Notes under the pieces: generated by a model
What the model was told of the DNA's origin: nothing
Database searches by the model: none
What the model saw: only the letters and a program-made list of their open reading frames with translations
Origin: Tubiluchus corallicola
Lineage: Eukaryota; Animalia; Priapulida
Length of the DNA stretch: 64,000 bases
Reading direction: 5' to 3'
Assembly (NCBI GenBank): GCA_030141605.1
Contig: JAQGDQ010000123.1
Span: 372,001-436,000, forward strand
Shown: piece after piece, positions 26,207 through 61,200 of the stretch
Layout: every line of letters begins with the position of its first letter
Position numbering within the stretch: the stretch's first letter is position 1
Program-made: the position numbers and the translations under genes

Positions 26207-26839
26207 ACATAGAAACAGAGGTACATAAGAAACGGTTTCACATTCACAGTATTAGATTATAACAGTGGGATATTAAATCTAACATTGGACTAGAGTATAA
26301 TGGAGATGAAAACTGAATTGTATAATTTATTATGAGATGTAGGAAAATGTTTTTATCGGTTATCATTAAGGGATTGTGGTAATTAAGTGTTGACTCGTGT
26401 GATTCCTTTTTAATGTACAAATTAAATAGTGAAGCCAAGACCATTATTAATAAGCTTATTGGAAGCAACACTCCCAAGTGTAATTAAGTTGTAAGAAAAC
26501 TTTTAAGAAGTTTTTGGTAGAACATTTTAAGAAGACCTTTTAATTAATGTCTTTTAATTCTGTAAGATTAAATAATTATATTCTTCTGGTTGCTTTCTGC
26601 TAGTAATTCTGACAAAATGTCTAGTGAAGTAATCACTCTTCAATTGATTTAGCCAAAATGTTTGAAGATTCTAAAATAAATTTGTGTGCATTCTTTCAGA
26701 TGTAATAAGACATGACACTCATGGATACTTATGTATAAAGTCCTGAGATTTATTGACTTATCCAGACAAAGGATTCTAGTTTCGGGAATAAAGCTTTAGT
26801 GGTAGCTCATTTTATTTTTCCTCAAATACAGCTGTCATC

Positions 26840-29800
26840 ATGTCTCTGTCTAAGAGTGAGGTGGAAGCAGCACGACCAAAGATTGAAAAAGTTGTGTACA
26901 AGTTTTTAGGTTATAGTGAACCGCATTTAGAGTCGGCTTCCGTCAATTGCTATCAAAAACAGTATGAGAAGAAGAAAATGGTACGCAAGCTGGCTCGTTA
27001 CCTGGATGAGAAGAAAGCAGAGAAATTGTCTGAAAAACTTTTGCGAGCTTTTAAGGATATTCAAGACCAAGCTTTTGATTTGGGAAAGGCAAGTAACAAT
27101 ATTTTAGTTCTTCATTTTTTTTCCAAATTGTGCTGTGTTGTTTAATATTTTAAAATTCTATGAAATTCATTTCTCTCTTGTGATTAGTTTGGAAATTAAC
27201 TCATCCAACTAATCATGTTTTGCACCACTTGTTTTAAACCACATGTAATATACAGAAACTGCTGCTCGCCTTGACAATAACTAAATGGGGCATGAATTGT
27301 GTCAATGTTGATAATGTGTTAAGCACACTGAATTACATAAAAGATGATTTATTTTGCCTAAAGTGTTTTGAATATTGTTTGCTTATTAGAAAATTACCAA
27401 CTTTTAATAATTGTATATTGATTAACAGCCATTTTCGTCAATTTTTTTCTCGAAAAAATTGTTTGATTTGTGATTGGGAAGAGTAAATTTTAGCAGGGTC
27501 TAACTCACTAATGTTAAAAATTAGTGATCTGTCAATTTTTTCTGCATGTATGGCCTGTACATGTACTGTGCATGTACTACCTGCAATTGTTTTTGAAATC
27601 TAAAACTACAACATTCGTTAACAAAGTTGTCTTCTTTTACAAAATCTTTGTGTTAAGATTCATTTTTGATTTTATCTTAATAGTGCACTGACATTTCAAA
27701 AAGCTAGTTTTCTTGCACTATAGTAAAACTAGCTAATTAGATAAGCTGATACATTAAGTAAAAATAAAGACCTTGGGTAAATAATTCAGACGTGAATGTT
27801 GGAGACAGTTCTTTTTCTGTGATGATGGCGTACTTACTGCACATATGAAGTTTTATTTGCTTATTTTCATTCAGGTGAAACAAGAGTCAACTGACGAAGA
27901 AAAAGCCAGCAAACGACGACGATTTGATGATGAGGATGATCGTAGGAAAGACAGAAAAGAAGACGGCAAACGAGATAGAGATTCAAGTAGCAGGAAGAGG
28001 TTTTTGTGAAAAATAGCTATTCATATTTGCAGACTTCGTCGTGTCTCTTAGTTTTAATAGCTGAATGGTCGCTGTTCGTGGTTAGAGCTTTAAGTTAAGC
28101 GAACCAAGCTTGGTTAGTAAGGAGATGGGTGTTTGTCCGGAGAATTGTTTACGAGTGGTCCTGCCACTACGAGCTACTTTAAGTAGACGTTGCTATTGAG
28201 CATTGAATGTTGTCTTGGAGAGTGAGTACTTTTGATAATTTCAGTAATGCTTTAAGGTCTATGTAATTTGCTTTTGCAGGTACAGTGAAGAAATTAATGG
28301 CAGCCGGGAGGAGGCAAAACGACCAAAAAGAGACGACAAGAAGGAGAAACCAAAAACTAAACCAGTGTGCAAAATTAATATTCATTATTTCAAAATTAAC
28401 AATCAATTTATGGATGCTGTCTCTTTGCTAAGTAGTCATTAAAAATAATAGCAAAATACTATTACCTGACATAGGCAGCTACTGAACAATTAACCAGATG
28501 CCTTTATAGCGCATGAATGTGCTTAGCAATATTTAATAGTTAAGTATATATTGGCATATATACTTGCCTTTTGGTAAGAAGTTCATAGATGGATGAGAAA
28601 CTTGGAGAATAATTGTTATTACGTAATTTTTAAACATGGTCGTGTTTCTTTAGTATGTTCTGAACTGTTTTTTTTCCATACACATACTATAATAGTAATT
28701 GAGACTGAGAATGTTAATATAAATAATTCTCTAAAAATTTGAAAATCATGCTTTGACCCTGCCAGTTTTGGTTGTCAGCAACTCATTCCTGGGTTCCTTT
28801 GCAATTTTAAGTAGGTATGTCGAAGAACAGAAGTGTAGTTTCAAAGCAAATTTAATTTGTATAGCAATTACTGCTATGCAATTCTTGTAATAAATTATGT
28901 CCTGAAAAAATTAGTGGCGTCAAATCGACAGTTGTCAAGGGAGCAGCATTATCTTATGCGTGGAAATCAGACACCATGGAAGCATACAGTATTAACTGAT
29001 TAAGTATATTTTTAAAATTCAAGTAAGTCTATTTCAGTCTTGCAGAACATTTGCGTAATAATAGTACAATGTATATTGTGTGGGCCTAGTTTTGCACAAC
29101 ATAGGCCCACATTTTAAAAAGTTGTGGCGTCCTTGACTCCTCTGACAGTAGCACAGAAGAACCACTGCTGAATAATCTGTAAAAACTGTCCCACTAATTT
29201 GTTTACTCAATTGATTTGTTGCTGCAAGTCTAGCCAAGCAAATTATTGATTAAAGTCCTAGATATCTTGATGTTGCTACTTTGCTCGCATTTATGTTACA
29301 GACCTGTTACTGTTAGCATTTAATGGCTCACTGGAACTGATTTGACACGTTGCAATATACCGATTTATTTCGAGATATTATTGAATGAATGGGAAACTTG
29401 TTCTGTAATCAAGTACATGTATCTTAAAAAATCTGAAAATTCATTTTCTGGGTGATACTTTATTTATTCAACAATTTCCTACATGCACATATGCACATAA
29501 TTTCCAAATGGATAATCAAATTTTCTATTGTGATTAATCGTTGAACAGAGTTAGTAATTGTCGTTTGGTTTGATTATGGTAGGAAACGCAGGAAGATGGT
29601 CCTATTCCTGGTCCAGATCCGAATAAACCGAGTCCAGGGATGCTTACAGCAATACAAATTCAGGATATGATGGCAAATGCACAGAGAATGATAGAAGAAC
29701 GAAAGAAACAGTTAAATTTAATAGTAAGTAAGCCTTTAATTCTTTAAAGTATTATATCAAATAAACTTATTTAAAGTCATGAATTATCAAATTATGAGGA

Positions 29801-32800
29801 AAAGAATTCACAAGTTTTTCTTGCACATTCGAGTTCTACTCAAAGTTAGATCACCAATAATTTCTCTGCCGTGATTTTTCTACTTTTTCCTTGAACAGTT
29901 TTTTTTTGTTATGATAAAGCTGGTTGGAACGGCTTTTGTACTTGTCTTGCTGATGTGTATCTTCTTACTTGGTTCATCTTAACCTACATATGCTGTCTTG
30001 AATAAGTTCAAGTTAATTGTTCAAATTATCTAACCTTAGCACTTTACTTTGAATTACACGACCTCGCTTGGACCAATGTTTAGTATTTTCTAGTTAGTAT
30101 TTTTGTAATAACTATGCATTACTAGCAACCCGTTACATTTAATAGGTGATACATAGTTTTTAGAAGCAAATTTTTGCATAGAGAATTTGCATACATAAAA
30201 AGTAATCCAGAAAAATGTGTAAGAAATTTATTTTCAATGTAATCTTTTTATTGTATGATATTTTACATGTGCATTTTTGTACATGCGGGTTTAAACCGTT
30301 TTCAACAGCTCTGTTATTTAACTGTTTGCAGCCAGTCCAGCCGGGAGTGCAGAACAATGCTCTTGAAGACAAGGCTAAAAGAGCTGCTGAAATACAAGCA
30401 AGGATACAGGTGTGAGCTGCTAATTAACATTCTGCATTAGTCATTCCTTTTTGTTATGTCTTAAACTAACCTGGCACATACTGGTGCAATAATAGAGCAG
30501 TTTTCAGTAAAAACAGTGTGAATGCTAGAAAGCGTGCGGTAAAGCATTTTTACTTGTCGGTGACATGTAGAACTTTTACACTATCACGTTTACAAGAGCG
30601 ACGACAAATTTATTCCCACACTTAATCTTGCTTGGAAACCTTTTTTTAAGTCTTAAATGAAATAGTGTTAAGTACTACACATGTTGTTGTCTGTTATTTT
30701 TTTTATCAAAAATTTTGCACCTCTACTGAGACTAGAACCCAAGACCTTCTCCTTTTTGGGCTATTACACCACAGAGGCACTCTCACGGCCTGACTTTTCA
30801 GACTTCAAATTTACTCTACAAGCCGCTAGAGGCGATTCACGGGAGAATCGTAGTTTATGCTCTATCAAGACTTTGTGATGTCAATCCAATAAATTCATGA
30901 GTGGTACTGAACTACATTGACATTGAAAAATCTAGCACCTCCATTGGTATTAGAATCAGAGACCTTCTGTTTTCCCAGCAGCTAACTAGAAGCTTACATG
31001 AGATATCAGAGTGATTTTCATAACCCAAAAGAGCATAACTTAGCTTACCATTTGAGATTTCTTGCAGCATGCGATTTAGTTATACAGTAGGAGCCATTTA
31101 CTAGACTCACAGTTAATAGAATCAGTCGCTTAATTGACACAAAAATGTCTAGTACGGGCCGCTTCCACTCAAATGTACATAAAAACAGTCGGCAAGTAAC
31201 TCATATAGCTCCGCTTAACTGGCTCAATATTTTTGCTTTACGTACTTAAAATAAGATACTTGCATGTGACCAAAGAGCTTTTACTACTTTTAATGCCACT
31301 TATTGTGGTATAAAAGTAGCAACTGTTCCTTATTTTTGTGTACTATGATGCACTTAGAAGTACGTGTAAAGTACGTTTATCATGTGTTGAAATGCTAGTG
31401 TAACAGTTTTGCTTTGAACCTGTCACCCATTCGTCTGCTGCATTTAACCTCCTTGTCCAAGAATTTGTGGAACGTAAACTTTTAATCACATGTCTAGTGG
31501 TTTCCCTTTGAAGTTCTTGCTGCTTTTCATGAAATCTTAATTAGTTAACTGTTGCTGTTATGTCACCGATGTATTCTTTGCGACTTTTTAAGCGTAAACG
31601 TCATAGATCAGCTAAGAGCATAGAGTTAATTTTGAAAAATGGAGCATAAAATTTAAAGCTCTCTCAGCCTTTGCAGCGCATTCTAAGCTGAGGAGTGATG
31701 GCTTGTATTTCTATACTAACAATACTATAGCTATCGGACAATAGACTCAGTCGTTTAATTGGCACAGAACTCTTCCATCCCAAAGTGAGTCTATTAAGCG
31801 GCTCTTACTGTATAAACCAATTGTGATTCTATCTAGTACAATAAAAATTGGGGCACTGTTAGGGAAATCCATTGATACTGTCAAATTAATTTGATGCTAT
31901 TTTTTACTCGTATTTTGTTAACCGTATTTTAGGCACATCTTACAGCAAAGCCAAATCTCTTAGTAACACTCTCAGGTGCCGAAGCAGCGAAAGCCGTTCT
32001 GGATCCGTCAAAAGGACCAACACCACTGATTCTTGATGATGAAGGTCGCACAGTGGATTCTTCGGGCAAAGCTATACATGTATGTTTGCATTATTTTATT
32101 CATGTTTTGTCTTAGGAAGTCAGATAAAATTGTCTCTTACAGTTTACTTGTAATGCTTGCTCCTTCTCCCTCCCTTTCTCTCACAAGATGGTCTCTCTGT
32201 CTCCTCCCTTTTGAATTTTTTTTGGCTCCCTTGCTGATTATATTTTACTTATGCAATATTGCTCATTTCAAAAAACTTGAATGGTGAATGAGCCTAAAAA
32301 TGTTAAACTTGTAAATTCAGTGTTTCTTATCTTTTTTGTATGCGGATTTCTAAACCTATATAAACATTTTTGGGTAAAATTGCGAAATTTTCAAGTTTAA
32401 CTTACCAGATGTATTATTTGTTTGCATTATATTTAATGCAGCGTCTTTTGTCCTAAAATTACAACTGTTAATAGCAGCTGCTTTAATGCAGGTACAGCAA
32501 TATTCGAGTTATTTCTCAAAAAACTATAATACAATATTTTAATATATTATAATATACGGTGTTTCAAACTTAATATCCAAATACCAAAAAAGTCTAGTGA
32601 CTGTTAACCCCGTTATAACTAACATTTTTGCGAGTACAAGATTATCAAACAATATGAAAGTGAATTGAGGTTGTAGTGACAGGTTTTTTTCCTTTTTACA
32701 GATACCTCAGTATACTCCAACCCTGAAAGCAAACATTCGCGCGAAACGAAGGGAAGAATTTAAAATGGTCCTCCAGGAGAAGCTTCCAGAAGAGCTTTCA

Positions 32801-35800
32801 GAAGCTAGTAAATTCTTTGATCCGCGCATGCCAGCGAAGATGTCGCAAAGAACTAGAAGGAAGTTCCACTTTGTCGAACACGGTCGATATGTACAGATGG
32901 AACAACGACTCAAGACAAAAGCGCAGTTGGAAAAGTTACAGAAGGAAATTGCACAGGTACAAAGTACAGTTTTACCTAGTGGATTGTACACCTGTTACTT
33001 TTCAATTTTCAATTCCTGCTAAATCTGTAGAATAACTACGAAATCTTAACTAATATAACTGGGAGTTGACAAGCTCTGAAGTTTTTTGCATTTGTTTTAC
33101 ATTTCCACTTCATTGGAAGTATATTTAAAAAGAACCAGATGTTTTGCTGCTATGAACAGATTGTAACTTAGCATTCTTTAGTTATTGACTTGGTTTTTGG
33201 AAATTTTAACCTTCCACCGCATTTGAACAAGAAATTATGGATTTTAAGGTTCATTTTTAGTTCATTATTTAGCCGAAAGAACTTAGCCGACAGAATAAAA
33301 CTTTAATAGGTAACAGGGGTCATAATTTCAAGCTTATTGATGATGGCATCATCAGTAAAAAGCCCAAGATCCTGTCATTTCAAAATACATTGTAAAGTAT
33401 TATGTACCTAGCCTAGAGAAAACATTTCTGGATGATTGATAGGGCTCCAGTTCTGACATCATAATTCTACTGAATGGCACAAAATGGCTACATTTGGAAA
33501 AAGCTAACTTAAAGATTTATCCCATTAAAATAGATATTGCAACAGGTGTTAAGTTTATGGTATACAGCCTATTTGTACTTTTTTAGCAAATTGATTTTTG
33601 TGCTATCTGCTGCACGGTGTAAAGAATAGTTCATAATGTTGCTCATAAAACTCACTGTACAGGTTGCCAAGAAGACTGGAATCCAATCTGCTACGGTCTT
33701 GACGAAGATTGCCCCGAAGAAAGAGCTGCTAGCTGATGAGATTCCAGACGTAGAATGGTGGGACGCTGTGATACTCCAGAATGAGGCTTACGAAAGCTTG
33801 GATAAGAGGCTGGAGGGTCAGGATGAATTTGAAGGCATTACGAATCTCGTTGAGCACCCAATTCAGATGAAACCTCCCACAGCTGAGGAAATGGTAATGC
33901 ATATATTTTTTTCTGTTTCTGCTTTATTAAAAATTTGTGTGATTTTTTCGCATTTATTTATTTATTGAATACAAGATAGTCGGTTAAATGTTTGATTATT
34001 TATCAGATAATCAATAAACTTTGTACCATTACGGCTACAAAACTTACAACTTGTACAGATCGTTTGCAGGTACAGTATACCCAGTACAGTACATATTTTT
34101 AGTAATTGAGTGAAATTTGTGTCTCTGTCACAAATGTAGTTATTAATTTTATACTACAAACGCTTTTTTTGTATATCCTGAAAACGTTCAGATAATACAG
34201 TCAAACCTAGTTATACTGCCGCCCGCCCCCCATTATAACACCAGCCTTGCCATAATGCCAACTACAGTAGTCGCCGCTTAATTGACTCACTTTTGGACCG
34301 ACATGTTTTGACCCAATTAACCGATTGAACCTATTTACCGATGGGTGTAGTATTACTGCTATAGAAGTATGAGTCATCAGCTATGCACTGCAAAAGCTTT
34401 TAATCAATTTTAGAAACGAAGTAACGCCTAAATTCCTTTGTGCAGTTAAAAATTAGAAAAAATATTTTAAAATATTAATTTATATAAGTGAATTAACAAT
34501 AAATTAAAAACTATACTTTTCTAAATCACACAAGTCTGAATTGGGCATGACTAAAACAGTTCCGAATCGTCTGCTCACTTGCATTGCTACATGACATAGC
34601 CAGTAAATGTACCGTACCTGCATATTTGACTATTAACTCATTAAGCCTGAAAGCGTGATTTGCAACTAGAGCATCAAAAGAAAACCGCTAAGCAAGTGAT
34701 TAAATGTTTAGCTTCCAGAAATTCTTTGGGTAACGAGGTTAATTGCAGCGGGCGAGCGGGTAACAGATTCAAAGCAAAACCACTACGCTAAGTGTATTAG
34801 AGGCATGATAAACGTACATGTTTCCAAACAAAAGGGAAGTAAAGATGACATAAAAGTAGGAAAGGCTGTTTGGGGACATACATGTGTCTTATTTTAAGTA
34901 CGTGAAGGAAAAATAGTGAGTCAATTAAGCGAAGTTATTTAAGTCAATTACCGATAGTTTTTATGCATATTTGAATAGAAGCAGCCGGTTCCAGGTATTT
35001 TTGAGTCAATTAAGCGACTGAGTCTATTAAGCGGCAACTACTGTATTGCCCTGTCCCACTTTCCATAATATATTAAATATAAGGAATACCGCCAACCTCG
35101 CCTACCGCCATATCTGCTGTGCCAAAAGTCTGTTTTACATAATAAATTTATTCTGTTATGACTCCAGCCAAGATAAAGCACAGGGATTTTACGGCTGTAA
35201 AAGCTATTTGACTCAAGGTAAAGTTATATGCGACAGCTATATATAGTATTAATTATCTAGTAATGTTACGTTGGGAGCTTGGATGGGCTGCGTGGCTGCA
35301 TATTCCTCTTATCAGGAGACAGCAGTATTTCACAAGACTCTACTCCACATTGTGTTACCTAAAAGTTTTGCATCACACGGCCCTAGGACTATTACCTGCA
35401 TTAATTTTGTTGATGCACAGTACAAATGTGTACTGAATAGCAAAAATGTACAGTATTATACATGTATTATTGTAGCGTAATAATAATTTACTATTTATGA
35501 CATATTAAAGTTAACTAGGAAACAAAATAGAGGTTACAGACTAGAACGGCTTTGATATTTAATGAACCTCAGCTTACCGCCAACACCACTATAGCGCCAT
35601 ATTTAGTGGTGTCCCAGACCTGGCGTTATAACGAGGTTTGACTGTAATTAGTAAAAGGAGAACTGCACTTGATCTAATGTTATAGTTGTTGTTATCATAA
35701 TTAGGGATATTTGTTTCGTCTTACAAGAAATTAATAAGCAAAAGGAGAGAATCATTAATATTAAATTCTATCATGAAGAGAAGTGGTAGAGATAAATCTA

Positions 35801-36916
35801 GCTTCACTGCTTAAAAATACAACATACAAGTGTCCTTACATATTTAGCTGCCAGGCTCCACAGATGCAGCTGCCATACCTGTAATGCTCACAAAGAAGGA
35901 AAGGAGGAAATTGCGGCGGATGAACCGACGAGAAACGTGGAAGGAGAAGCAAGAGAAGATCCGCCTGGGACTAGAACCTCCTCCGGAACCTAAAGTGCGC
36001 ATGTCGAATTTGATGCGTGTTCTCGGAACTGAACAGGTGCGAAATATGATGTTACGACTATTACATTAATTCGCAATTTTAGTATTTACAGTTCTGTGTG
36101 AACAGTCATGCTTGCAAGATGTTCAGTTTTAATTGGTGTTGTATTCTTTTAGTGTATTTAGATGTTTACTAGTCTATATTATGTCTAGTAAATTTCTGCA
36201 GTAGGAACCCAATCACTGACATAATAATTAGCATAGCTGTCAGGGATCTAAAAGATGAGTTTTTGGAGTGTCAAATAAGTGATTAAATATAGTAACATGA
36301 CATGAGTTTTTTGCTGGTACAGGTACAAGATCCTACAAAGATCGAAGCTCACGTGCGAGCACAAATGGCAAAACGGCAGAAAGCACATGAAGAGGCCAAT
36401 GCAGCTAGGAAGCTTACTAAAGAACAAGTGCGTGACAAAAAGATCAAGAAAATCAAAGAGGATACATCCAAAGGTGTGCACATTTCCGTTTACCGTGTGA
36501 AGGATCTCTCAAACCCCTCGAAAAAGTTCAAGGTGGAAACGAACTGCAAACAGTTGCTTATGACAGGCACTGTAGTGTTTTATCGGGACTGCAATGTCAT
36601 CGTTGTCGAAGGAGGGCCAAGGCAACAGAAAAAATACCGACGATTAATGTTGCACAGAATCAAGTGGGCAGAAGATACGAAATTAGACGAGAAGAAACGA
36701 AAAGATTCGGCATTTGATAGTAAAGAGGTTTCATCTACGAATAGTTGTGTGTTAGTCTGGGAAGGCATGGTGAAAGAAAGAAACTTTGGTGAGATGAAAT
36801 TTAAGCTGTGCCCCACTGAAGCTTTCGCTCGTGAGCATTTTCGCAAGCACAATGTTGAACACTACTGGGATTTAGCGTATACACAGTCAATTGTAGAAAA
36901 GACAGAGGTGGAGTAA
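26840..36916 (+). CDS. PRPF3: U4/U6 small nuclear ribonucleoprotein Prp3 (~697 aa)
   Basis: Exons 26840-27088, 27875-27999, 28280-28364, 29583-29723, 30332-30409, 31933-32079, 32702-32956, 33663-33893, 35848-36036, 36323-36916; 2094 nt, all phases compatible. N-terminal PWI-like region, then SPGMLT.IQ..MM...[90 protein letters not shown] and EHYWDLA, all characteristic of PRPF3. Confidence 0.97.
28055..28150 (+). mobile_element. 5S rRNA-like fragment preceded by a tRNA A-box-like head (composite SINE or 5S pseudogene)
   Basis: aagttaagc.....cttggttagta..gatggg resembles the 5S internal control region (AAGCTAAGC...CCTGGTTAGTACTTGGATGGG); TAGCTGAATGG lies upstream. Confidence 0.5.
30712..30990 (-). 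mobile_element. Two degenerate tRNA-SINE-like heads
   Basis: gcacctc...tagaa.c..agaccttct repeated at ~30717 and ~30935; the minus strand reads aggtcttgggttctagtc (B-box-like). Confidence 0.35.
31085..31810. mobile_element. pogo/Tigger-like MITE in PRPF3 intron
   Basis: TA|CAGTAGGAGCC...agactcac and gtgagtctattaagcggctcttactg|TA TIRs; same family as 34265-35043. Confidence 0.8.
34198..35644. mobile_element. pogo/Tigger-like MITE (outer) containing a nested second MITE
   Basis: TA|CAGTCAAACCTAGTTATA ... TATAACGAGGTTTGACTG|TA TIRs. Confidence 0.8.
34265..35043. mobile_element. pogo/Tigger-like MITE (inner, nested)
   Basis: TA|CAGTAGTCGCCGCTTAAT ... ATTAAGCGGCAACTACTG|TA; internal sequence matches 31085-31810 in reverse orientation. 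Confidence 0.8.
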
Positions 36917-39239: not shown

Positions 39240-42200
39240 TCAGTATTGATACAGTGTCTCTATCAAGCTGTGACGTTGTTTTGTGAATGCATCAAGAGTT
39301 TTTGAAGGCCTGCAAAAACCGCAACATAATTAATATAAGTGTGGTACGGTGGTAATATAACTATAGTATTAATATAAGTATGGCATTTGGTGGTATGTGC
39401 TAGCTTCACAACCCCATGCTATGCTTCAGCGAGTAAGCAACTTTGAGTTTATGCATTCAAGTTCACTACAGTTTAAGAAAAAAATGAGCCTTAATTTACT
39501 AAAAAATATACTCTATATTTTCTTACTCAATTTTGCTTATAAAGTGACATTAGTTTTTGACACAGAGCAGCTCCTTGCAAATAATTCCATTGTGCTGACG
39601 CTACTACTGGTGGACTTCTATTAGCATTCATTATGATGTTAGACTGTATCACTAAAACCAACAAGACTGCCTACCTTCCCAGAAATGTTTGAAGAATTTC
39701 TCTGCTTGTCTTTGGATAATATGGTTGCTTAACGACGTGTTGCAGAACTGTTAGTGTTCCTTGTAGATTGACAACTGGTTGAAAATTTTTATCCTCGCTC
39801 TGCAAAAAGAAATGGTACAGCTCTATCTCTTCTAATAATTACTTAAATTGGTTGACTTCACCACAAGAATTCTGAGAGCCATTACACATTCATTTGGGAT
39901 GCTGTCAACAAGTATTTACTTCTTGAGTAGACCACGGGTTATTTGCAGCTTGGCATCATGGGTATATAATAAATATGTTATTAAATTCTTTGGAAGTGCT
40001 ATGCTGTAATGATTGTTGTGGATGTATTTAATAAATAATAAATAAATGAAAAGTATAACAGTTTTGAGTTTTGACGACAATATTGTGATTTGCTGAATGA
40101 TATTGTGATACGCAAGACGTATTCATTAAATTCTCCATTTGAATCAAACTAAGAAAAACGAAAATAATGATTAGCCATGTACAAAGCTTCAGTATAAACA
40201 TAGGAATTACAAATGACAGTCGTAAATTATTAAACTAAATCAGTACCTTTATTAAACCCAGATGCACTAACAATGAGTTCGAAAATAACAAGCCATCTAG
40301 TTCCTGTTCTTGAAACGCTTTGCTAAACAGAACATCTGAAAACAGAAAAGCTGTTAATAGATTATAAACACATTGTAAAAAACTCAAGGCAGCCATTTTA
40401 AACAAAGAAAAACAGCTAACAAATAGCATAAAAAATGTAATGCCTTTATAGCCTCAATGATTTTACATTCTTATATAATATACAAAATAGAAAAAATATA
40501 TAATCATTGAGACTGTAAAGGGTACTACGTTTTTTATGTTAAAGATGACAAGTCTCAGGAGAGCTCTCATATTTTCAGTCCTAACAAATACATTGTAAAT
40601 AAGGTAATCAGTACTTCATAGACCCTGGTAACAAGAGAAGAAATTTTTGTTGGTTATGAAAAACGATTTCTTTCTAATTTAAACTCTAATAAGTAAGAAT
40701 AAATGATGAGAGAAACAAAAGGATAGAACAGTGTAGTAGATACCGTACAGGGTGCGTGGAGTCAGTAACCGAGACAAGATTGACTACCATTTACTGGACA
40801 ACAACAGTCAAACTGTCACCACCTGCAAAACTTAATTTAATCCAACGAGTAACAATAGACAGACGTATTTAAATGATCAAACAGGTTCACTGACCTGTGG
40901 TATCAATGACAGCTTGATAAACATTTGGATCTGTCCCACCAGCTGTTGAAGACAATTTCATAAAAACTGAAACAACTGTGTCGGATTCGTCAAGTTTTTC
41001 CTGAAGCAGAAAAAATTGCTGAGTTAGGTGCCGAGAGAAAACTACTGCAGACAAAGTGCAAAGACTACCTACAGCACTAATTACATAGTTGTACGAACTA
41101 TACAGTGGGTGCTTTAATTAATGAAATTAAATTTACAGAATCTATTACATTCTCCGAATTCTACTTTACAGAGCAAATTATATAGATTCTTGCGTTCTCA
41201 TCATCCCAACACTGAGGCTTGTCTTTCTTTCATTAGCCTTATCATCGTTCATTCTATTCTTATAGTTCTACAGCAACATCGAACAGATCATAACCAATTT
41301 GTCACACCCTTTCTCACACTCAGTTTTCAACAAGTTACATAACCGGCTCAGTTTTGTTGTTATCTATAGAGTAATTATTTTGTAATTGGTAATGGAATTC
41401 GTAAGTGATGAATTTACTTTCTGAAAGGCTTTAAAAGTTTTATTCTGTTAGCCAATTAGCATTTGATTAATTACCTGTATACTTGTTTAATAAATATATA
41501 AATGTACTTGTGAATGTAAGGTTTCTTTCTCACTTAAAAATATACTTTAAACTAGTTACATAGTTGCTTTACCACTAAAACGCTAATTACATTAACTCCA
41601 TAGCTCTTTCATTACTAATACTAATAACTTGAAAATTTATGCAAGATTGCAAATAAAAAGTGAGAATTACAAAGATTTATAAAAAGCCATGTATATGAGT
41701 ATATTTGAGTGTGAAGTCGATGTGAATTAACCCGACTGCAGAAAACTGATTGGTTTACAAATGATAACTAAATGAACGTAATATTTTAGTATTTTTCATT
41801 ATTTTGTAAGACATCATCACTTTTATGTGCATTATGTTAGAAGTTGACAGGTAAAACCTTTTCAGACAGTCATTTTGTGAACACTTAAAAAATTAAAAAA
41901 ATTGTATAAATAACATCAGCTTGTGCAATAACTTTGAAGGTAATAATCCACCGTTTACTACCTAATAGAAAATTAAAAGATGGCATGCATATAATAAACT
42001 ATAAGCATCAGATCAAATCTGAATTAAATTTACAAACGTCTAAGATCCAAATAAACAAATTAAACATATGCTTGCATATTTGAAGTTGTTAATATACGAC
42101 TGTGCTATATACAATTTTAAGTTTGATTCAACTTCAAAACTTTAGTGCATATAATTATAAACACATATCTTGATAGTTAATTCTAACTTGTCCACAATAC

Positions 42201-45200
42201 CCACCATTGAGAATGCTAATTACACAGAACTATTATATAGATGCTGCACATAAAGCATGCAGCAGGAAACAGATTGACAATGATTTGAATGCAAATCGAA
42301 AATTTGCAAGCAAAATTTTTACCTTTGTGATTTTTCATTAATTACACTGAAATTCAGGTTACTAATGAATTATGCAGATTCGGAATTGTTTTCAAATTGC
42401 ATTATTTGAAAGAAATAAGGATATGAAATTTTACGCAGTGATCACAGAATATATTAAAACACACAATTATCAACTAATGTCTGTTCTGTTACAGAATTTG
42501 CATATAAAATATTGCATAAAAAATTAGATAACTAAAAATTGCTAGTCATAGTGACCTGATTGTACAACTGCAAAGTACTCAGTGTTTAATAACTTACACC
42601 AATGTGATTGATGATCTTTTCCACACGATCATCTCCAAGACCCAGCAGTCGAGCAGCTGATGGTGACTTTAGGAATCTCTCCACAGTACAAGACTCGGCT
42701 TGTACCTGTAATAAACAAAATTATATAATGCATCTCACTTAATACGAAGCTGCATTCATTACTTGCACATCTATGAGAAAATAGTTTGAAATTACAACTT
42801 TTAACTCAATCAATGTGAATAACAACATTAAGGATTAGTAGCAAGTGTGAATTGCTTTAGCGTCACTCTTTACTAGTATAGTCGAGTTGCCTTAGCGTCA
42901 GTTTTTTGGTAGTATGTGTAAATTGCCTGAGCATCAACTTTACTCATTAACTGCAGCATTAAGCTTGAAATCAGAGGCTGACACACACACAAAAAACTAC
43001 TATAAAACAGATCATAAATGCTCACTACAGCTTCCCATATGCAATATACATTTTGAAGTATGAATGAACATTTTGAATGACGAGAAAATTTGTCATTTCA
43101 AAATATTTTGAAAATTTGAGTTACCACACTTATGTCTATGTAAATGTTCCCAGCAGTTTATCTTGGCTTAATCCAGTTTCGTATGTATACGTTTTCCTTT
43201 TTGCAAATTAATAGGATGTAGAATAAACAATTCCAAACGTAAAGCATTTTTTCGTATATCCAAAAACTGCTATATGTTAACATTCCGGATGGCTAAATTT
43301 TAAAACTGTTTCGAAAAGCAATCTTGTAAAAAGCATTTGTAAAACTGATACTTTTTCGCCTAAAGAAACATTGTTCAATGTGAGTATGAAGAATCAGGTT
43401 CAGAAAGCACTGGAGAAGACAGGGGGCCGGTTTCACACAGTCACTAAATTAATGTCATTACAATCACTAAACCAATTGTAAGACGTTGTTGACTTAGTAA
43501 CGGCTTTATGAAGCTGAGCCTTTGTTGCTTGAAAACAAATATAGTATAAAGGTGAAAACAGAAAAAAACAGAATCAAGCTAAATACGATAATACACGAGC
43601 ATTATGATGTAGAAGTTTATTACAACTCAACTAATATACATGAGTTCAGGGACCTTCAGTCATGTAAATAAAGTGAGACAACAAAAAATTTGTGTGCGGT
43701 AAGAGTATGTACGTACGTACGTTAATACTTTGGTGATACATTCTTAAAAATCATTAGATTTTTCTTTCTAGTATGCATATACACTTATGTATTTCATTAT
43801 TCCCAAAAGCTACTATGCAAACATTGTTCAGTTATTTACAAATGCATTTATTTAAAAAATGCATAATTAAACTTAATAAAACCAAAATATATTGTGTACT
43901 TACCTGACATTTTAAAAACAATTAAGAACATTTAAATTATTTACAGCTGGATAAACTAACTTTCTTCCATTACAGAGTAAGATGTTGGAAGTATAATAAA
44001 ATGGTTGCTTCAGTATTCGGTATTCAAAATACTGCTTATTGATATTACAGTCTAAGGCAGGGCAAAGTGTACAACAATGATGCATTGCTATCTATTAAAT
44101 AATTGCAAACTTCCAGGCAGTGTAATTACATGTACTGAAATTCGTTAGAAATTTTGATTACCCGAGTTGCATAAAATTGTTGAAAAGAAGAAAAGGGTTT
44201 TATTTCTAACGTAATCTTAGAAATCAAAAAAGGCGCAATAAGTATATATGGCACTTGGAAATTGTTTGCTCTAGTTAAAAGATTTTACGACATATACAGA
44301 CTACTCTAGCTTTATTGGTGCGCTACATCTTAGTTAAGAGCAGTATGAAAACTACTAAACATGGCAATTTCTTTCCTCTAGAAATGACTAACTTGGCAAA
44401 CATATACAAAATTTTCTGTACAGTAATCTGTTGAGCAATACCATATGTTACATAAATGTCCTAAGATTCAGAATTACTTTAGTTACTTTGATCACACAAA
44501 TAAATACATAAAATCAGTCAACCAGTGTTTATATTTGGACAGAATGATTACGCTTTAAATTAAATTCAGTCAGTTCAAGCTTCATCATATTTTCAACTTT
44601 TCCAGTGAAGCCGTAAGTGGGTCTTCGTGGCTTATTACCTGGAAAAGATGAAAATATAGCATAAGCCTGGACACTATAATTATATACATGCTTTTTAATG
44701 CTTTAAATGAAATCTGGAAGACAGTACTTATATATATAAGCCAAAAAAGGGCAGAAACTGCTAATAAAGGAGCTAACGGGTAAGGGTTAATAAAATCAAT
44801 AATTTCTCTCATCAGGTCCACTAGGACAACTTTGTGCATGCATTACGAAGAAAAAACAAAACCTGAAGGCAGTCATGGAGAGTCAATTTAATGCCAGCAT
44901 TAGTAAAACAAACAAATAAATTAAATAGGCCTTACCTCTCCACTTTGCTCTCTTTTTAATGGAGATGCATAGGATCTAACAGGAATTTCCTCAATTTCTT
45001 CCTCATCGTGATCAGAAACATTTTCGTCACTATAATTATCTTCCTGTTCCTCGTCTTCTGTATCTGGTGCACCTTCGTCATCGCTGGTGTAAAGTAATAT
45101 GCAAAAAAAATGGAGTAAAGTAAAAAAATACATTAATAATAATTAATTAAGGAAATAATTAACAAATGCAAATACTTTTAACACTGAAATGGAACTGTGA

Positions 45201-48200
45201 ATGGAAAATCCTTTGAACACCCAGAACTCTAAATTTCATATAGTTTATAGTAGTTTATTCTACCATCCCAAGCAAATTACATTAGAAAATATATTACATT
45301 ATATTTTACATTATATATACATTATTTTCTAATGTATACATATAATTAGAAAATAATGTATATATAATGTAAAATATAATGTTACATATATATAATAACA
45401 TCTTGTGTTGCAGAGTAGTCAGATGCTGAGACTTGTAAGTCTACTTGTAAGTCTGCATTATATGTGACTGCTGCAGAAAAAGTGAAAATGAACTTAACAG
45501 GTAGAAGTTAATCAGAATAAGAATTACATAATTCTTTCTTTAGTTGCGCTTTAAATTTGTCAATAGTAGTTATTATCTTGTGAGATTGATGCAACGTTGT
45601 TCTGCAGAAAGATAAATAATATTCATTGTGTCTTGTATTATAATTTGCACTGAGCCTGTCTTATAGAAGGAAGGGTATAGATTATTTTGTGAGAAGCTTG
45701 TAACAATAACAGCCAGGCAACATTCTACACATTAGTAATAATACATAACTAAGCTGTGCATTTTGTCTGCACTTACGATAAACTGGCTAATACGTCAAGC
45801 CTTTCTACAGCCTCCATGATGGCAGTTAACAAATCTATTCCTTCGTCGCCAAAACAGTTTCCTGAAAAAGGTTACATGAACTGCATTATTTCAGAAAAAG
45901 TTAAAAGAAAATGTTAGAAAAAGCTGGTAACAAACTTTTAAAATTTTATTTGAATTATGAAGCTACATTTTCCTAATGCAGATATGTTACAAAGGCAAAA
46001 ATATCGATGTCTGCAGGAATTTGCACGTTTCTTCAAAGTTGTATTACGAAAAGATGAAATTGTTAACAAAATGTAAAATCAAATCAGGAAAGACCAAAAA
46101 AGAAACAACTACAATAACCAATCAGTCATAGTTTTATATAATGTTAAACAAAATCAAAGCGATTCCAAACTTGTCAGCACAATGTTTTTTACTGCAGCTG
46201 TTTTAACAGAACTCTGCCTAGGAAGTAAGAAAAATCCACTTCTATAATGTGTTTACAAAATAATTCTCTAATGACTGCCATACATTATCTGGCCCTAAGA
46301 AACATTATCTGGCCCTAATATTGCAGGGCTGTGGAGTCAAAGCTATGACCATTAAGACTCAAATTCGGAGAACTTAAGCATAAGAAGAAGCCTAGCCCGA
46401 AGATTCACTTGGTAGTGATAAAATGCCACTGTAGCTAAATATTGAAAGTACTGCAAACTATTACTTAAAGGTAGGCGTCGGAGTTGGACCTTCCAAAATT
46501 TTAAGAGTCAGAGTTGGGATTTCAACATACCAACTCCACAGTCCTGTCCTTTTGCTTCTCTGGGCAAAAAGCTGCCAGCAAAAAAGTAACAAGAAAGTGC
46601 ATTATAGCAAACAGCTCAACTCAACTCACCATTCAGATCTAACCTCTCAATCTTATCTTTATTCACCATGGCTTCAGCAATGGCTACACCACCGGTCTGG
46701 TCAATTTCATTATAAGCCAAATTTATTTCTCGTAGATTTAAATGGCCTTCGGTTAGCGCCTCTGCAAGCACCGATGAACCGCCACCTCTCAGTAAACAAT
46801 CACCCAAGTTTAGCACTTCCAGCGCTTGCATGTAAGACAAAGCCTAACGTAAATAAATAAGTAAATAATATATAAATAATCATAAATGAACAAATAAATC
46901 ATCAAGGCAGCAGATAATATGTGCTGAGAACACTTGAACAATTAGACATGACAATGAAAATTAAGGTAAACCATTACAGCCTAAACAGTGGAACACATAA
47001 TTGAGTAGCCATTTATGATATCATTCTAAAAAATTCTATTATCACATCACCTTAGCCAGTTCTTTGGCACCTTTCTCCGTAAATGTGTTGTCGTTCATAT
47101 TGAGAATTCGTAATTTTTTATTGCAGGAAAATGCATCGCAGAGTGCAGCAATACCAACGTGGTAGATACCATTCTGTGGCATAGAGATTTCTTCCAATGT
47201 CCCAATAGCCTTTATTGTACCATAAAAAATACATGTTAATATATAGAAATCATTATTCTGCAGTCAACCAAAAGAAATTCATGATTAGAATCACAAGTTC
47301 ACTTACACAAATAATAATGAAGTTAATTACAGCCTATAACTATAGTCACCCTAACTATCTTTCAAACAAAGAAAGCAACGTCACAAAGTGTTATAGAGGA
47401 TATACAATCTAGAGTACTATAGAAGAGATACATAAATCAATATACAATCTGAGGTGACTATCTAACCTTAAAAGCTTCTGCTAGAGCCATTGATCCTTCA
47501 TTCTCTAATCGATTGCGCCCAGCGATAAAAACCTTCAGTGCTAGAGGACGTCCAGCTTCTGTGCTTTTTTCATGGCATTCTAATAATGCCTTTGATAAGA
47601 CCTAAAAACAACGAAAATGATTCCATAAAGAAAGTCGATGTATTTTATGCAAACTATTACTAAATAAAATGCATCACATACATAATGTATATTCATATAC
47701 AATAGTGACCAGACGGCTTGAATTTACAACAATTGTTAAAAGTTAGAAAATTGCACAACAGTTTAAATAGACTCATTCATTAGGAATTTTAACCTTTAAT
47801 ATCATCTACCTATTAAAATTAAGACATAAAAACAGGTCTTTGGCAGTTTCCATTGCCACTACATGTTGGTCAAAGATCTGTCATATTGCACAACGAAAAT
47901 GGCAGCAGAAGGGATATCGAAATATCTGTTTTTGTGCTAATTTTACACATTGCAAATGGCAACAGAGACTGTCACAAGATCCGTTTTGTGTCTTAATTTT
48001 AATAGGTAATGTTAAAATGCAATTTGAATGTGTGTACTTATAAATGCATCGTGGTCTAGTACCATTCACATACCTTTCCTCCACTAATGCCTAATCCATT
48101 GTTATTAAACCGTAAGATCTCTAAAGAATATCCACTCTCGCTTTTTAGTAGTTCTACAATAGCATTGACGCCGTCGGCACCAAACGCATTGTCACTAAGA

Positions 48201-50346
48201 TCTAATTCAACCAGATGGGCTCCAGAGGCTATGATAGCACTACCTAGATCCCTCTACATACAATATAAAACAGCAATGATAAGATAATACAATAGACACA
48301 GAAAAAATAATACAACTCAATGTCTTTCAAACTGTATGTTGTTTGTATGGACAAAATTACAAGTGAAATGCCAATCACTAGTTAAATTGCTAGTTACGGT
48401 CGAATCCCAGTAATATGATTCTGCTTAAAACGAAACTCTGGGGAGTACTACAAATTTATTATGTCCCTGCCAAGCTTATAATAAAACCTATGAAATCACT
48501 TATGGTTAATACGAAACTCGTTATTGCAAAAACACCATTTATACAACACTTTCCCAAATTCCCGCCAATATAATTTTAATACAAATAAATATTTTAATAT
48601 GATTTCTGCTACGTCTTGCCCGTCTAGACTCTAGACACTCTTCAGCTGTTGGAACGGTAACCACCGCCACAAGTTTTTTACAACCATTATGCATCATAAT
48701 GCAACATTTTGCCAGAGAGAGTGCAAATTTAAATGACTTCATTACAAATTTACTTGCAAAACTGTAAAGTTACTGATTTCTATAAGACAGTAATAAAATG
48801 TGAGTGAGTTAATTACAACACATTTTTCCTTTGAAGGATTTTTTCGGGTTAAAATTTTTTACAATTTAAAAATTATTAATCACTGAAATGAGTGTACAGA
48901 CAACTACCTGCAGTCAAACTGTTGGTTTCCAAAATGCCTTCCCACTGTGATAAAAATTTGCCCTTATAGTTTAAAACTAGTTCTTCTAACTGTCTGCCTT
49001 CCCTTCCCTTCGTTTGCATGTGTCCAATTGTAATACCATAGCAGCGGCTATAGTAAAGTTTTGTTGTGTAGGTGGCATTAACATTGTGATGTCCAGTATA
49101 TTATAGACTATACATTCATGGTATTAACATACCGAAGACTAACCAGAGTAACTGATTGGTAACACACTGAATCGTTGATACAATTTTGCAGTTTGTACTC
49201 ATGCAAAACATGGGGGGGTAAAGAAGCTTAAATTATGCTGCCTGACAAAAGACCGATGAACAGATGTCATGTCCGTTAACTGCTATTTTGTATTAGAAGT
49301 AAAAACACGTGTAACAGATAGCACGAAACCCGCTTAATATGAGAAAATATTTTGGTTCCGTGAAAATCGTATTAACGGGATTCGACGTACTGGCTTCTCA
49401 AATATGCACATTATTAAAGATTGGTACAAAAATAATCAAGGTTCTAAAATTTGTTGCTAATTACCTATATACAAAATGTGGCTACGAGCTGTATCTACAT
49501 GTGTGGCTGTACAACACATGTAAGTAGCTTTGCTCTGTGTGTCCTCTTACAGACTTACACATCTTTATAATAAGTGCTAATTATGTAGTGTGTTTGTAGT
49601 TGTGTTGTATTGTGTTTTTTATTATTTTATGCTTTTTATATACTAACAAATATGGCACAAACTAAACTAAACTAAACTAATAGCTGTAAAAAACGATGAC
49701 GATGACGATGATGACGACGACAACGACGACTTACACATCTTTATAATAAGTGCTGATTATGTAGTGTGTTAGTAGTTGTGTTGTATAGTGTTTTTTTATT
49801 ATTTTATGCTTTTTATATACTAACAAATATGGCACAAACTAAACTAAACTAAAATAGGTTAATGCTAATAGCTGTAAAAATAATAACGATGATGATGATG
49901 ACAACAATGAGTTTAAATATTAAAGATTACCAGTGATGGTGGTATTTCTGATCGAAGTCGGCCTGTAAACATATCGCTCCACAGCGCCCTCTGGAATGTA
50001 GAATGTGATCTCAGTGCACCCGCAATTGCTTTTGCTGCATCTACGCCAACTGTGTTGCCCTCCAGTTTTAGTGCCTTCAATGAATGGCATTCTCGAATTG
50101 CCTTAACAACTTCTTGAGCTAGAAACATCAACTATGATTCAAAATGAACTCACAAAAATAAGTCTGGTAAATTAATAACTGAATGTTACAGGCCAGAACA
50201 AGACATCACTCTTACTCACCATCTTCGGCTGTGTCTAGTTTAAGTCCTCGACCGGAAAAACTAACAATTTCTGTATCAATGTCCACTGATACTGTAGCGT
50301 GAGCCAACTGTTCTTCAAGGTCCTTCACTTCTGATTCAGCTGACAT
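39240..50346 (-). CDS. RANGAP1: Ran GTPase-activating protein 1, long isoform (~577 aa)
   Basis: Exons 50346-50220, 50118-49931, 48253-48074, 47601-47467, 47209-47051, 46843-46630, 45861-45777, 45083-44936, 42705-42598, 41000-40895, 40335-40247, 39799-39675, 39309-39240; 1734 nt. LRR motifs ([52 protein letters not shown]), an acidic linker, and a C-terminal domain with the SUMO motif GLIK|SED and RHSLIETLY. Confidence 0.97.
43423..43520. mobile_element. ~100-bp MITE, copy 1
   Basis: gccggtttcac...cactaa / ttagtaacggctttatgaagctgagc; an inverted homolog lies at 56431-56538. Confidence 0.6.
44585..44638 (-). CDS. RANGAP1: Candidate alternative terminal exon of RanGAP1 ([17 protein letters not shown]), giving a ~429 aa short isoform
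   Basis: Strong acceptor (atattttcatcttttccag) in phase 0 after the acidic exon ending 44936; NES-like L-xxx-L-xx-L-x-I followed by TGA TGA; AATAAA on the minus strand at 44316-44311. Confidence 0.6.
   Translation of the reverse strand, partial: VISHEDPLTASLEKLKI
45296..45382. repeat. Perfect 38-bp AT-rich inverted repeat with 11-nt spacer
   Basis: acattatattttacattatatatacattattttctaat (45296-45333) and its exact reverse complement (45345-45382). Confidence 0.9.
46324..46546. mobile_element. hAT-like MITE
   Basis: TIR CAGGGCTGTGGAGT / ACTCCACAGTCCTG with internal GAGTC(G/A)GAGT repeats; no clear TSD. Confidence 0.6.
49552..49910 (+). repeat. ~176-bp tandem duplication ending in (AAACT)n and (GAT/GAC)n tails
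   Basis: gacttacacatctttataataagtgct... repeated at 49552 and 49728; LINE-tail-like. Confidence 0.85.
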
Positions 50347-58200: not shown

Positions 58201-61200
58201 GAAGGGTAGCACAATATGTAATTCTCACTTCAATTTTCATTTCAGAAATATTTTAATCCATGTATAGAGAATATTAAGAAAAACAATGGTGATGAATCAG
58301 TTTCAGAAGAACACGTGCACACAGTATGCAGACAGATACTCGAGGAGGTATAGATTCCTTTATTCATTGCATTTGGTAGAAGTTGTCATTAATGGTGTTC
58401 TGTTGGAATGTAATTACTATCTACTCGTAGTTTGCTTAATTACATTTTGGAGTACTTTTTGTTAATATTGCAATGCTTGCTGTGATAGTTTTGAGATTAT
58501 GCATTTTCTGTACATTATGAAGTAGGCCCATATTTGTAGATGAAAAACAACACAATTTATTAAAACTTTTACTATACATAGTTAAAATCATGCCAACGTT
58601 TCGACAAACTACAGCTGTCATCATTAGTGGCAAATTTTACAAACATACAACCAGTTTATATAGGTAGAGCCTATTATGCACTAATTAAGTAGTTAACAGT
58701 AGTTACCTGGCAAATAGGTAATGATTAAGCAGACCTGAAGCAAAGAAATCGATATAGTAACAAATAGCTAAGTATTTGTGCATTAAGAGAAGGCTTATAA
58801 GGGTACACAGATAAACTTCCTTTTATTAATAAGTCCTAGCTATTTGTACTTCTGGTCGCAGTGCTGAAATTATTAAAATCAGCTTTGTGGCCAGAGGCAC
58901 AAATATGGTCATAAGTGCTGGACTGAGGAGAATTTTTTAATTTTTTGCCAGTGCTAGACGAAATGCCGAGATACAACAATGTGAAGTAAAAAAGCTTTAG
59001 TAAAGTTATGTTGTTTTTAACTATAAATGTTTTTAAGTGCCCGTTTATTGGCCTTTATAATTGGCCTTTATTTATTTGTAGACATTTTATAAGCTATAAT
59101 AGAAAATTTAAAGAGATAAAACTATGAATTATTTTGTTTGTTGGATGTGTTGTTAGAAAAATCATTAAAATGCATTTCCACCATATATAGGCTAAACGTC
59201 TGTATTCGTCTCCCACACGAGGTAGTACACCATATCCAGATGTATCTGATTCAGAAAGTACTACTGAACTAAGAATGAGTCGAATTATAAATAAGGTAAG
59301 TGTATGGAATATTTTGTACAAAATATAGCATATTAACACTTGCTTTCATGAAGCGTCTCTTGAAAAGCCCTTGTAGAATGTTTGTAATATATTAACTTGT
59401 GCAACACTGTGAAAATGATAGTCTGAAAACATTTTAATTTATAGCGAAGACCTTCGAGCAACGTGTATCAAATATATCAGTTGTCTAAAAATTTCATTAG
59501 TTTTCAGTCCGCAGATGAATTTTTTTTGGAAATTTAAGATTATAAAGCTGAAAGTCACTAACAGTGTTAGATTATTCCCTTTTATCACATATAACTTTTC
59601 CAAGCCCCCAAAATGTCCTTCCTTTGACCTCTGTGGCAAGGGATGTCTAATAATAATATGCTTGCGCACTGGCTTTTACGATCGTAGTTTGATGAGATGC
59701 TAAAGCGATATGTTGTTGGTCGCTTTCTGTTGAGTCGTCTAAGACAATTTTGTAAAACTTCTCATTCCTTAGTGGTGACCAAGCAAATAGTTCACTAATT
59801 ATTATGAACCTGACCAGCTTGAATGTGACTGATATTGATGCTGACAAGCTCAGTTCAATATTAACTGTAGTATATTTTACTGTTTTTATGCTTTTAATGA
59901 CCATTCTCATTGGGTTAGATGTATGCGTTGTAGCACTGATTATGGTAAAAAATTTTCTCAGAACAGCGGCCAATCTTTTCCTGGCAAATTTTGCAATTTC
60001 GAGTGCCTTACTTTCTTTGTACAACATTCATATGTTGATAGTGCGGCATTATGTTACCGACTTTAGTGCTCTGCATTGTGCAGTGAATGGTATTGTTGTG
60101 TGTGGACTGCTCACAGAATGCTTGATCATGGAAGTTCTGATGACAATTGATAGATACATCGCTATCATCTATCCTCTACATTATCACCATCTCAGTACTA
60201 ACTTGAATAGCACTATCACTATCTTTGTGTCTTGGATATACTCTTTTTGCATAGGAATAGCATCTTCATCGTGGTTTACCTTTTTGAATAATACGGAGGT
60301 TAAGGATGTTACAAAATGTGTCATAGCCCGTCAGGTTCACCCCGAATTTTGTCTTTATTTTGCTGCACAATATGCCATAGCATCTTCAGTCATCTTCTTC
60401 ATTTATGCAAGTGTATTTAAAGTTGTTCTACAGCATAAAATCCAGTTAGCTAATGCAGTGCCTGATAGTCATCAAAACTATCTGAATTTAATAGAGCGGA
60501 TCAAAGCTGCAATATCTGTGTTTGCAACTGTTGGAACATCATTGCTGTGTTTTGCAGCTTTTTTTGCACACTTGGGTATTACCTGTGCTACTGAGTTGGA
60601 ACTTAAATCATTGAAGCAGAGTGCTGACATATTAATAAACATCAGCGCATTGACAAATATTATCCTCTATTTCTGGAAAATAAAGCAGCTGCGGGAGTTT
60701 TTCCTGAAACTATGTGGAAAGCGTCACAACAGCATAGTTGCTACTTCTAGTCAAAATCCGTGCTGATAACAAACTAAGTGATTGACCGTGAAACAGTGCG
60801 TAGCATTGAAAGTGTTCATTTTAACAGTTTAATTATGAAATTTATTAAGTAAAACTTGCAAGCTACTTAAACAAAAATATTTTGTTTCCCTCTCCCAAAT
60901 GTATATATGTATATATATATATATTTACATATATGCTTACATATATATTTACAAATATTACATATATGTCTACTGTATAGTAAGTCCTTGTTTTAATGAC
61001 TCTTTGTTTATTAATGATTCATTTAACAATAATGACTATTTGCCATCTTTTTCTCCTTCAATGCCGACTTTGCTTACTTTAAGTACTAAATTAGCACTAG
61101 ATTTAAATGAACGTTAATTGTATATGTTTATATTTGCGCACGTGCGCGCATGGGTACTTAACAATGTTGTAATGGATATAGTCCACCTGACTCACTGATA

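Follow-up and report, generated by a model that had tools for sequence, protein, structure and literature searches.

Papers on the GTPase-activating protein of Ran (RanGAP) contrast the short and soluble Rna1 of yeasts with the long RanGAP1 of animals, which is anchored at the nuclear pore through SUMO. Human RanGAP1 is exported by CRM1, carries a nuclear localization signal (NLS) in its SUMO domain and reaches RanBP2 via SUMO (PMC4624696; here and below, papers with PMC numbers are cited from excerpts). Its nuclear export signal (NES) is an N-terminal helix that is conserved across vertebrates and invertebrates, though not among yeasts (PMC11703149), and the published NESs of Rna1 have been placed in the leucine-rich-repeat (LRR) domain (PMC4624696, citing Feng 1999). 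In Drosophila, the truncated, active Sd-RanGAP of Segregation Distorter enters the nucleus and causes meiotic drive, which is abolished by addition of a heterologous NES (review: PMC7214746). Here we describe a RanGAP1 gene in a stretch of 64,000 nucleotides (nt) from the priapulid Tubiluchus corallicola (contig JAQGDQ010000123.1, positions 372,001 to 436,000; hereafter the window), in which an initial annotation had noticed an additional last exon. This exon, very likely a genuine one, is in phase, has a strong acceptor and a stop, and matches the endings of short RanGAP1 forms in sponges, molluscs, an annelid and a hemichordate; it is probably spliced to exon 8 to give a soluble RanGAP of 429 residues, the last helix of which is predicted to be a CRM1 export signal.

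The gene lies on the minus strand, as do all its features given below, and has 13 exons with GT/AG at every junction, which encode a product of 577 residues with one terminal stop. Exon 8 (44936..45083), encoding the acidic tract after the LRRs and a linker, ends in a phase-0 donor, GAG|GTAAGG, the branch point of both forms. Beyond it, a polypyrimidine tract with a CAG acceptor (44639..44663) leads into the alternative last exon, whose coding part (44582..44638) consists of 17 codons (44638-44588) and TGA TGA; translation of 44560-44638 gives the 17 residues and then the two stops. The junction is in phase 0 on both sides, and exons 1-8 with the candidate exon encode exactly 429 residues, so that the initial annotation's estimates of ~577 and ~429 residues agree with the exon model. 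Scored with a matrix trained on just 12 sites, the gene's own constitutive acceptors, the candidate acceptor reaches 11.15 bits, ranks first among the 456 intronic AG sites of the gene and exceeds all 12 constitutive acceptors (3.4-10.2 in leave-one-out scoring), which bears out the extra in-frame exon with a strong acceptor noticed earlier. An in-frame cassette exon was ruled out, in line with the earlier claim: the internal GT at 44597, joined to exon 9 at 42705, shifts the frame and leads to a stop 11 codons later. The candidate exon has its own acceptor, the proper phase and a stop codon, and no usable donor.

Two other features carried less weight than the initial annotation had given them. 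Residues L8, L12, L15 and I17 of the peptide do show the spacing Phi1-x3-Phi2-x2-Phi3-x-Phi4, which we take to be that of class 1a NESs, but this is weak by itself, as the bare spacing ends 59 of the 1372 AG-to-stop intronic peptides (~4%), 16 of these 59 belonging to the candidate's own frame. Likewise, an AATAAA indeed lies close to the ~270 nt downstream claimed for it (44311..44316, its start 266 nt past the second stop), but as a signal for the short mRNA it is unproven, and we rejected it as evidence because the number of copies in the intron is about that expected by chance (4 observed, the others at 44204, 43852 and 43621, against 2.6 expected). Neither the spacing nor the AATAAA is convincing alone.

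What lifts the candidate exon above chance is the match of its peptide to the tails of other animal RanGAPs. A profile search restricted to proteins of at most 492 residues gave 1034 matches, of which the best 120 were classified by a rough rule. Of these, 45 extend beyond the acidic tract but lack a C-domain, and among the 45 there are 19 that end in the strict motif Phi-x3-Phi-x2-Phi-x-Phi no more than 4 residues from the stop, as against 2 of 44 proteins with traces of the C-domain, 2 of 31 fragments and 1 of 156 long forms. Two of the 19 ends are spurious; the other 17 are acidic-led tails, belonging, among the matches listed, to five molluscs, Owenia, Saccoglossus, the crinoid Anneissia, the sponge Halichondria, four sharks and four Logan proteins. 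On a profile of these 17 tails, which were chosen by eye and exclude the window, the window peptide ranks first among 2919 six-frame stop-ended peptides (15.3 bits, against 12.3 and 9.2 for the two that follow), and its score falls within the leave-one-out range of the true tails (4.8-38.1). Searches with single exons were poor, one giving 4 matches and another mostly unrelated LRR proteins.

Pairs of long and short RanGAP1 with a common branch point were found in seven other animals: a sponge, an annelid, three named molluscs, a hemichordate and a JGI organism. In the six named pairs (Sinanodonta and Elysia crispata, each under one locus tag, Halichondria X1/X2, Mytilus coruscus, Owenia and Saccoglossus) the two forms diverge where the linker ends: the short one continues into a tail of 14-25 residues and the long one enters the first conserved motif of the C-domain, as in the window; the long record of Owenia begins differently, and the Saccoglossus pair is drawn from two annotation releases. 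The seventh pair, that of the JGI organism, is identical over 410 residues and lies on transcript-sized contigs of 1.5-2.3 kb, too short for the introns. A pair from Babylonia was dropped, being a fragment. The annotated short isoforms of Halichondria (XP_064404921.1, X2), Saccoglossus (XP_077864731.1), Owenia (CAH1777387.1) and Mytilus (CAC5408097.1) have the same branch point and tail motif as the window exon and are automatic annotations. A linker motif directly before the branch point, DP-x-L-x-V/I-x-G-x-A/S-I/L-T/S-P, is conserved from the sponge to the short paralogue of sharks (P0315-P0317, P0326, P0331 and others) and is not recognisable in the window protein.

The same layout was seen in genomic DNA. 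A metagenome scan, from which 80 of 143 RanGAP loci were kept, contains three unrelated contigs (L067, L062 and L066) in which an acidic exon with a phase-0 GT is followed by an intron of 60-85 nt, an exon of 13-14 codons encoding the motif, and a stop; a phase-0 exon of the C-domain lies 111 and 333 nt further on in L067 and L062, and L067 is close to Halichondria in sequence. No canonical AATAAA is present between the exons in these three loci. Because the seven pairs share a branch point and the three contigs share a layout, the idea of one gene with two endings, put forward in the initial annotation, is supported, and the lack of conservation in orthologues by which it might have failed was not found; the spread of the exon from sponges to deuterostomes goes beyond what had been proposed. 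The best reading of the feature is a real and deeply conserved alternative last exon. Other arrangements near the branch point were noted in the same scan. In Nematostella-like loci (L079:8500-8580 and L020:2030-2095, not L074 or L077), read-through of the linker-exon donor gives V-x3-L-x2-V-x-F and a stop, possibly a read-through version of the short form and possibly chance, and at L035:7400-7500 an NES-like helix lies within the shared linker exon, directly before the donor.

The spacing found in the tail is an NES pattern, favoured by true NESs together with acidic residues and disordered flanks, and a helix followed by an extended segment is their typical shape (PMC3442415). The tail sequence fits the acidic context; tentative agreement in helix, extended end and disorder comes from AlphaFold modelling on 18 short forms, in which a disordered linker precedes the tail of Mactra and this tail forms a helix (413-418) and then an extended end, all with low confidence (predicted local distance difference test, pLDDT, of 52-64). 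The tail would not be the only signal of the short product. Coding exon 1 (50220..50346), common to both forms, encodes an NES-like helix (V7, L10, L14, A17, V19) spaced as in the human NES (PMC11703149), which is also present in 143 of 156 long forms and absent from Halichondria and Clytia. The export signal attributed earlier to the short form is conserved as a predicted motif, but it appears to be a second signal beside the N-terminal helix, which both window forms keep, rather than the sole one; in Halichondria, where that helix is absent, the tail is the sole recognisable signal. Short RanGAPs of hydrozoan type (P0458, which clusters with Clytia, L013 and L015) have neither NES-like helix nor C-domain, and long forms of the hydrozoan clade (L016, L017; support 100/100) exist as well.

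The long form of the window compares closely with human RanGAP1 (PDB 9b62, in a complex of SUMO1-RanGAP1, Ubc9, RanBP2 and CRM1; PMC11703149), with which it shares the N-terminal NES-like helix, the LRR GAP domain, the acidic linker and PF07834 with a SUMO consensus site. The human protein differs in that no short NES-ended isoform is found among the listed bony-vertebrate proteins. The short form resembles fungal Rna1p (S. pombe PDB 1yrg/1k5d; S. cerevisiae), which has LRRs, an acidic tract and a brief tail with a similar terminal motif, as judged from Rna1-like loci, the PDB alignments ending before the C-terminus of S. pombe Rna1; unlike the window form, which is an alternative product, Rna1 is the sole product of an intronless gene and has no N-terminal helix. 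Like the short form, Sd-RanGAP is C-terminally shortened, catalytically complete and devoid of the SUMO site, but it arose as a truncated duplicate, has lost an export signal and is partly nuclear, whereas the window exon lies inside a single intact gene and the short form keeps, by sequence, two NES-like motifs. Because it ends in a conserved NES-like motif, the short isoform is predicted to be a safe counterpart of Sd-RanGAP rather than a driver.

We propose that the exon 8 donor would choose between the near acceptor, presumably with intronic cleavage and polyadenylation, and the acceptor of exon 9. The long product would retain the SUMO site and dock on RanBP2/Ubc9, as established for human RanGAP1. 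The short one would have the full GAP domain without the SUMO site and the NLS region of the C-domain; with a mass of ~47 kDa, it could pass into the nucleus to some extent, where active RanGAP would erode the RanGTP gradient. The acidic, terminal and presumably exposed motif may then bring the enzyme back to the cytoplasm, in support of the N-terminal helix. The simplest interpretation is that the tail serves to exclude an unanchored GAP from the nucleus. It has been proposed in a simulation preprint that the C-domain autoinhibits unsumoylated RanGAP1 (PMC13317620), in which case, as a speculation, the short form might be constitutively active.

A number of observations weigh against this picture. 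The exon is absent from 8 of the 11 animal genomic loci that cover the region (L020, L035, L039, L050, L074, L077, L079 and L080, some of which may be the same species), and the complete transcript-like animal contigs of the metagenome scan comprise 19 long forms, 2 short ones without the motif and none with it. Among the best 120 of 1034 matches the tail occurs in no protein from a bony vertebrate, arthropod, tunicate, nematode or cnidarian, and there is no NES-ended member, among the members listed (at most 15 per cluster), in the clusters of Branchiostoma, Biomphalaria, Mizuhopecten, Mytilus trossulus, Limulus, oyster, Schistocerca, Timema, Dermacentor, lamprey, ruminants, Haliotis, Nematostella and Clytia. 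The selection of the profile tails by eye also counts here, as does the tendency of false-positive NESs to have Thr at Phi3 (PMC3442415), a residue allowed in the relaxed motif of the Rna1-like loci described below; the human N-terminal NES does carry Thr at this position (PMC11703149). CRM1 binding by the tail is a prediction, and use of the junction 44936->44638 in the window species is likely rather than established. With eight loci lacking the exon and no short motif-ended transcript-like contig, the alternative exon is widespread but patchy, and the short form is probably a minor one.

Among the competing explanations, the least credible is that of a chance intronic sequence: the bare pattern does end ~4% of the AG-to-stop intronic peptides and the AATAAA is at chance level, but the best of 456 acceptors and the best of 2919 peptides coincide, in the intron and phase used by other animals, and the pairs, the profile rank and the genomic layout have already largely refuted it. 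It is distinctly improbable, if less so, that the exon is functional elsewhere and a silent relic in the window. In favour of a relic, a second profile match lies elsewhere in the window (12.3 against 15.3 bits). Moreover, the exon begins with GT (AG|GT, 44638-44630), so that its splicing to exon 8 rebuilds a donor-like GAG|GTAATA and it might be just a recursive splice point toward exon 9; this GT is, however, not conserved in the three other genomic loci, where the exon begins with GCC, GCT and GAT. Also against a relic are the highest-scoring acceptor of the gene, an undisrupted frame and a profile score in the range of true tails. Somewhat more room, though still little, is left for an exon that is real and used, but whose tail, instead of holding RanGAP outside the nucleus, would attach the soluble enzyme to export complexes of CRM1 or to a different partner, or would pack against the GAP domain. 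With an N-terminal NES-like helix in both forms, and in most long forms in general, another export signal seems superfluous; that helix tethers the GAP domain to CRM1 in the human complex (PMC11703149), and hydrozoan short RanGAPs have neither helix. Halichondria, on the other hand, lacks the N-terminal helix, as do the N-termini of S. pombe and S. cerevisiae (PMC11703149), the conserved positions are exactly those of the CRM1-groove spacing, and the model contains no confident packing of the tail. An export signal ending a soluble isoform remains the preferred reading, and a likely one.

The origin of this ending is a separate question. Since a sponge, protostomes and deuterostomes share one branch point, the exon dates at least to early animals. 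Older candidates were sought among 15 intronless Rna1-like loci picked from the 80 (L041 and L049 with identical ends; L032 and L051-L053, with other extensions, left out), which are probably from fungi and protists, a label drawn from sequence and, for three of them, also from a tree of GAP domains with 48 rows. A relaxed motif, with T, A or E allowed at Phi3, ends 14 of the 15 and 3 of 156 long forms, and 12 of the 15 tails outscore every one of the 156 long-form ends on the animal-tail profile. The protein of the choanoflagellate Acanthoeca, too, has a similar helix behind its acidic tract and then ends. The alternative exon probably represents a C-terminus older than the animals, retained as exons for the SUMO domain were gained downstream of it, an ancestry that is plausible rather than proven. 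In the tree, in which the GAP domain of the window is placed no finer than invertebrate animal, four 'RanGAP1-like' proteins of sharks group together (100/100) as the sister clade of canonical jawed-vertebrate RanGAP1 (99/92; joint 97/89), and the complete records seen are all short and NES-ended, which fits a partition of the two isoforms between paralogues. We would tentatively, and with slightly less than even confidence, extend this into a history in which the SUMO/pore domain consists of exons added behind an old gene, whose last exon, encoding a C-terminal export signal for CRM1 that can still be seen in fungal Rna1, was kept from sponges to hemichordates as a regulated splice choice setting the ratio of pore-bound to soluble enzyme; sharks would have fixed the short form as a gene of its own after the jawed-vertebrate duplication, and bony vertebrates appear to have lost it. 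The alternative, unlikely in our view and bearing on the history, not on the isoform, is that the animal tails are real but separate from the fungal C-terminus and have converged on an NES. The motif of ~10 residues holds little information, its strict version occurs in only 4 of the 15 Rna1-like tails, the choanoflagellate tail P0086 (-2.6) and P0091 (-0.1) score low on the animal profile, and the intron position offers no comparison because the fungal-type genes are intronless. Against convergence stand the identical place after the acidic tract at the very end, the spacing and the acidic lead-in, together with the ranking of the 12 Rna1-like tails and the branch point common to sponge, protostomes and deuterostomes.

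As for the rest of the gene, exons 2-7 (45777..50118: 50118-49931, 48253-48074, 47601-47467, 47209-47051, 46843-46630 and 45861-45777) encode the GAP domain of RI-type LRRs, homologous to RanGAP1/Rna1. The best PDB match of the protein is human RanGAP1 (9b62_G), and its identity to named animal RanGAP1 is 45-51% over the full length. Exons 9-13 (39240..42705: 42705-42598, 41000-40895, 40335-40247, 39799-39675 and 39309-39240) encode the C-terminal SUMO-attachment domain of the long form, in which the IKSE site recorded by the initial annotation was located at residues 512-515, spanning exons 11/12. PF07834 (RanGAP1_C), above the cut-off in exon 12 and below it in exon 11, and with it the SUMO consensus lysine, belongs to the long form only. 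Contigs of a related run, X2 (guessed to be RNA, ~90% alike), join three upstream introns among exons 2-7; one ends at 44972, short of the exon 8 donor, and none covers the alternative exon or exon 9, so that the run is uninformative here. A search among sequencing runs listed no RNA run that contains the stretch, a negative which carries no weight as evidence. X1, DNA-like and with other alleles, spans 44462-45200 with 3 substitutions and 3 gaps, none inside the candidate exon, which is not evidence of constraint because changes are so few overall; its one-base indels at 44669 and 44742 argue against coding use of the open frame upstream of the acceptor. PRPF3 (26792-36916, plus strand), with PRP3 and Prp3_C domains, converges on RanGAP1, the stop codons lying ~2.3 kb apart, and an intronless frame of 336 codons for a rhodopsin-family G protein-coupled receptor (7tm_1) occupies 59756-60766 on the plus strand. 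Elsewhere in the family, nematode and a few arthropod records (P0155-P0171, 680-980 residues) far outscore single-domain RanGAPs, which suggests doubled GAP domains, and P0141 (also P0365 and P0376, by eye) combines RanGAP LRRs, phenylalanine-glycine repeats and a RanBP1 domain in one protein (Pfam), a further way of linking RanGAP with a module like that of a nucleoporin.

Taken singly, neither alternative last exons nor NESs nor short RanGAPs are new, and several of the short isoforms stand in automatic annotations. In the literature searched (full text, with few subscription journals), we found neither a conserved short NES-ended animal isoform nor a C-terminal NES of Rna1; the excerpts of PMC12946277 and PMC4735346 do not describe such an isoform, and in those of PMC11703149 and PMC4624696 the word 'isoform' occurs 0 times and no short NES-ended form is mentioned. 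If one animal gene makes both products, the contrast between Rna1 and RanGAP1 is incomplete for much of the animal tree. The finding would then provide a visible intermediate in the gain of the SUMO domain and a splicing switch acting on the site of RanGTP hydrolysis, would predict an overlooked C-terminal export signal in yeast Rna1, and would suggest a reason why short RanGAPs occurring naturally do no harm, in contrast to the Sd-RanGAP of Drosophila, which drives.
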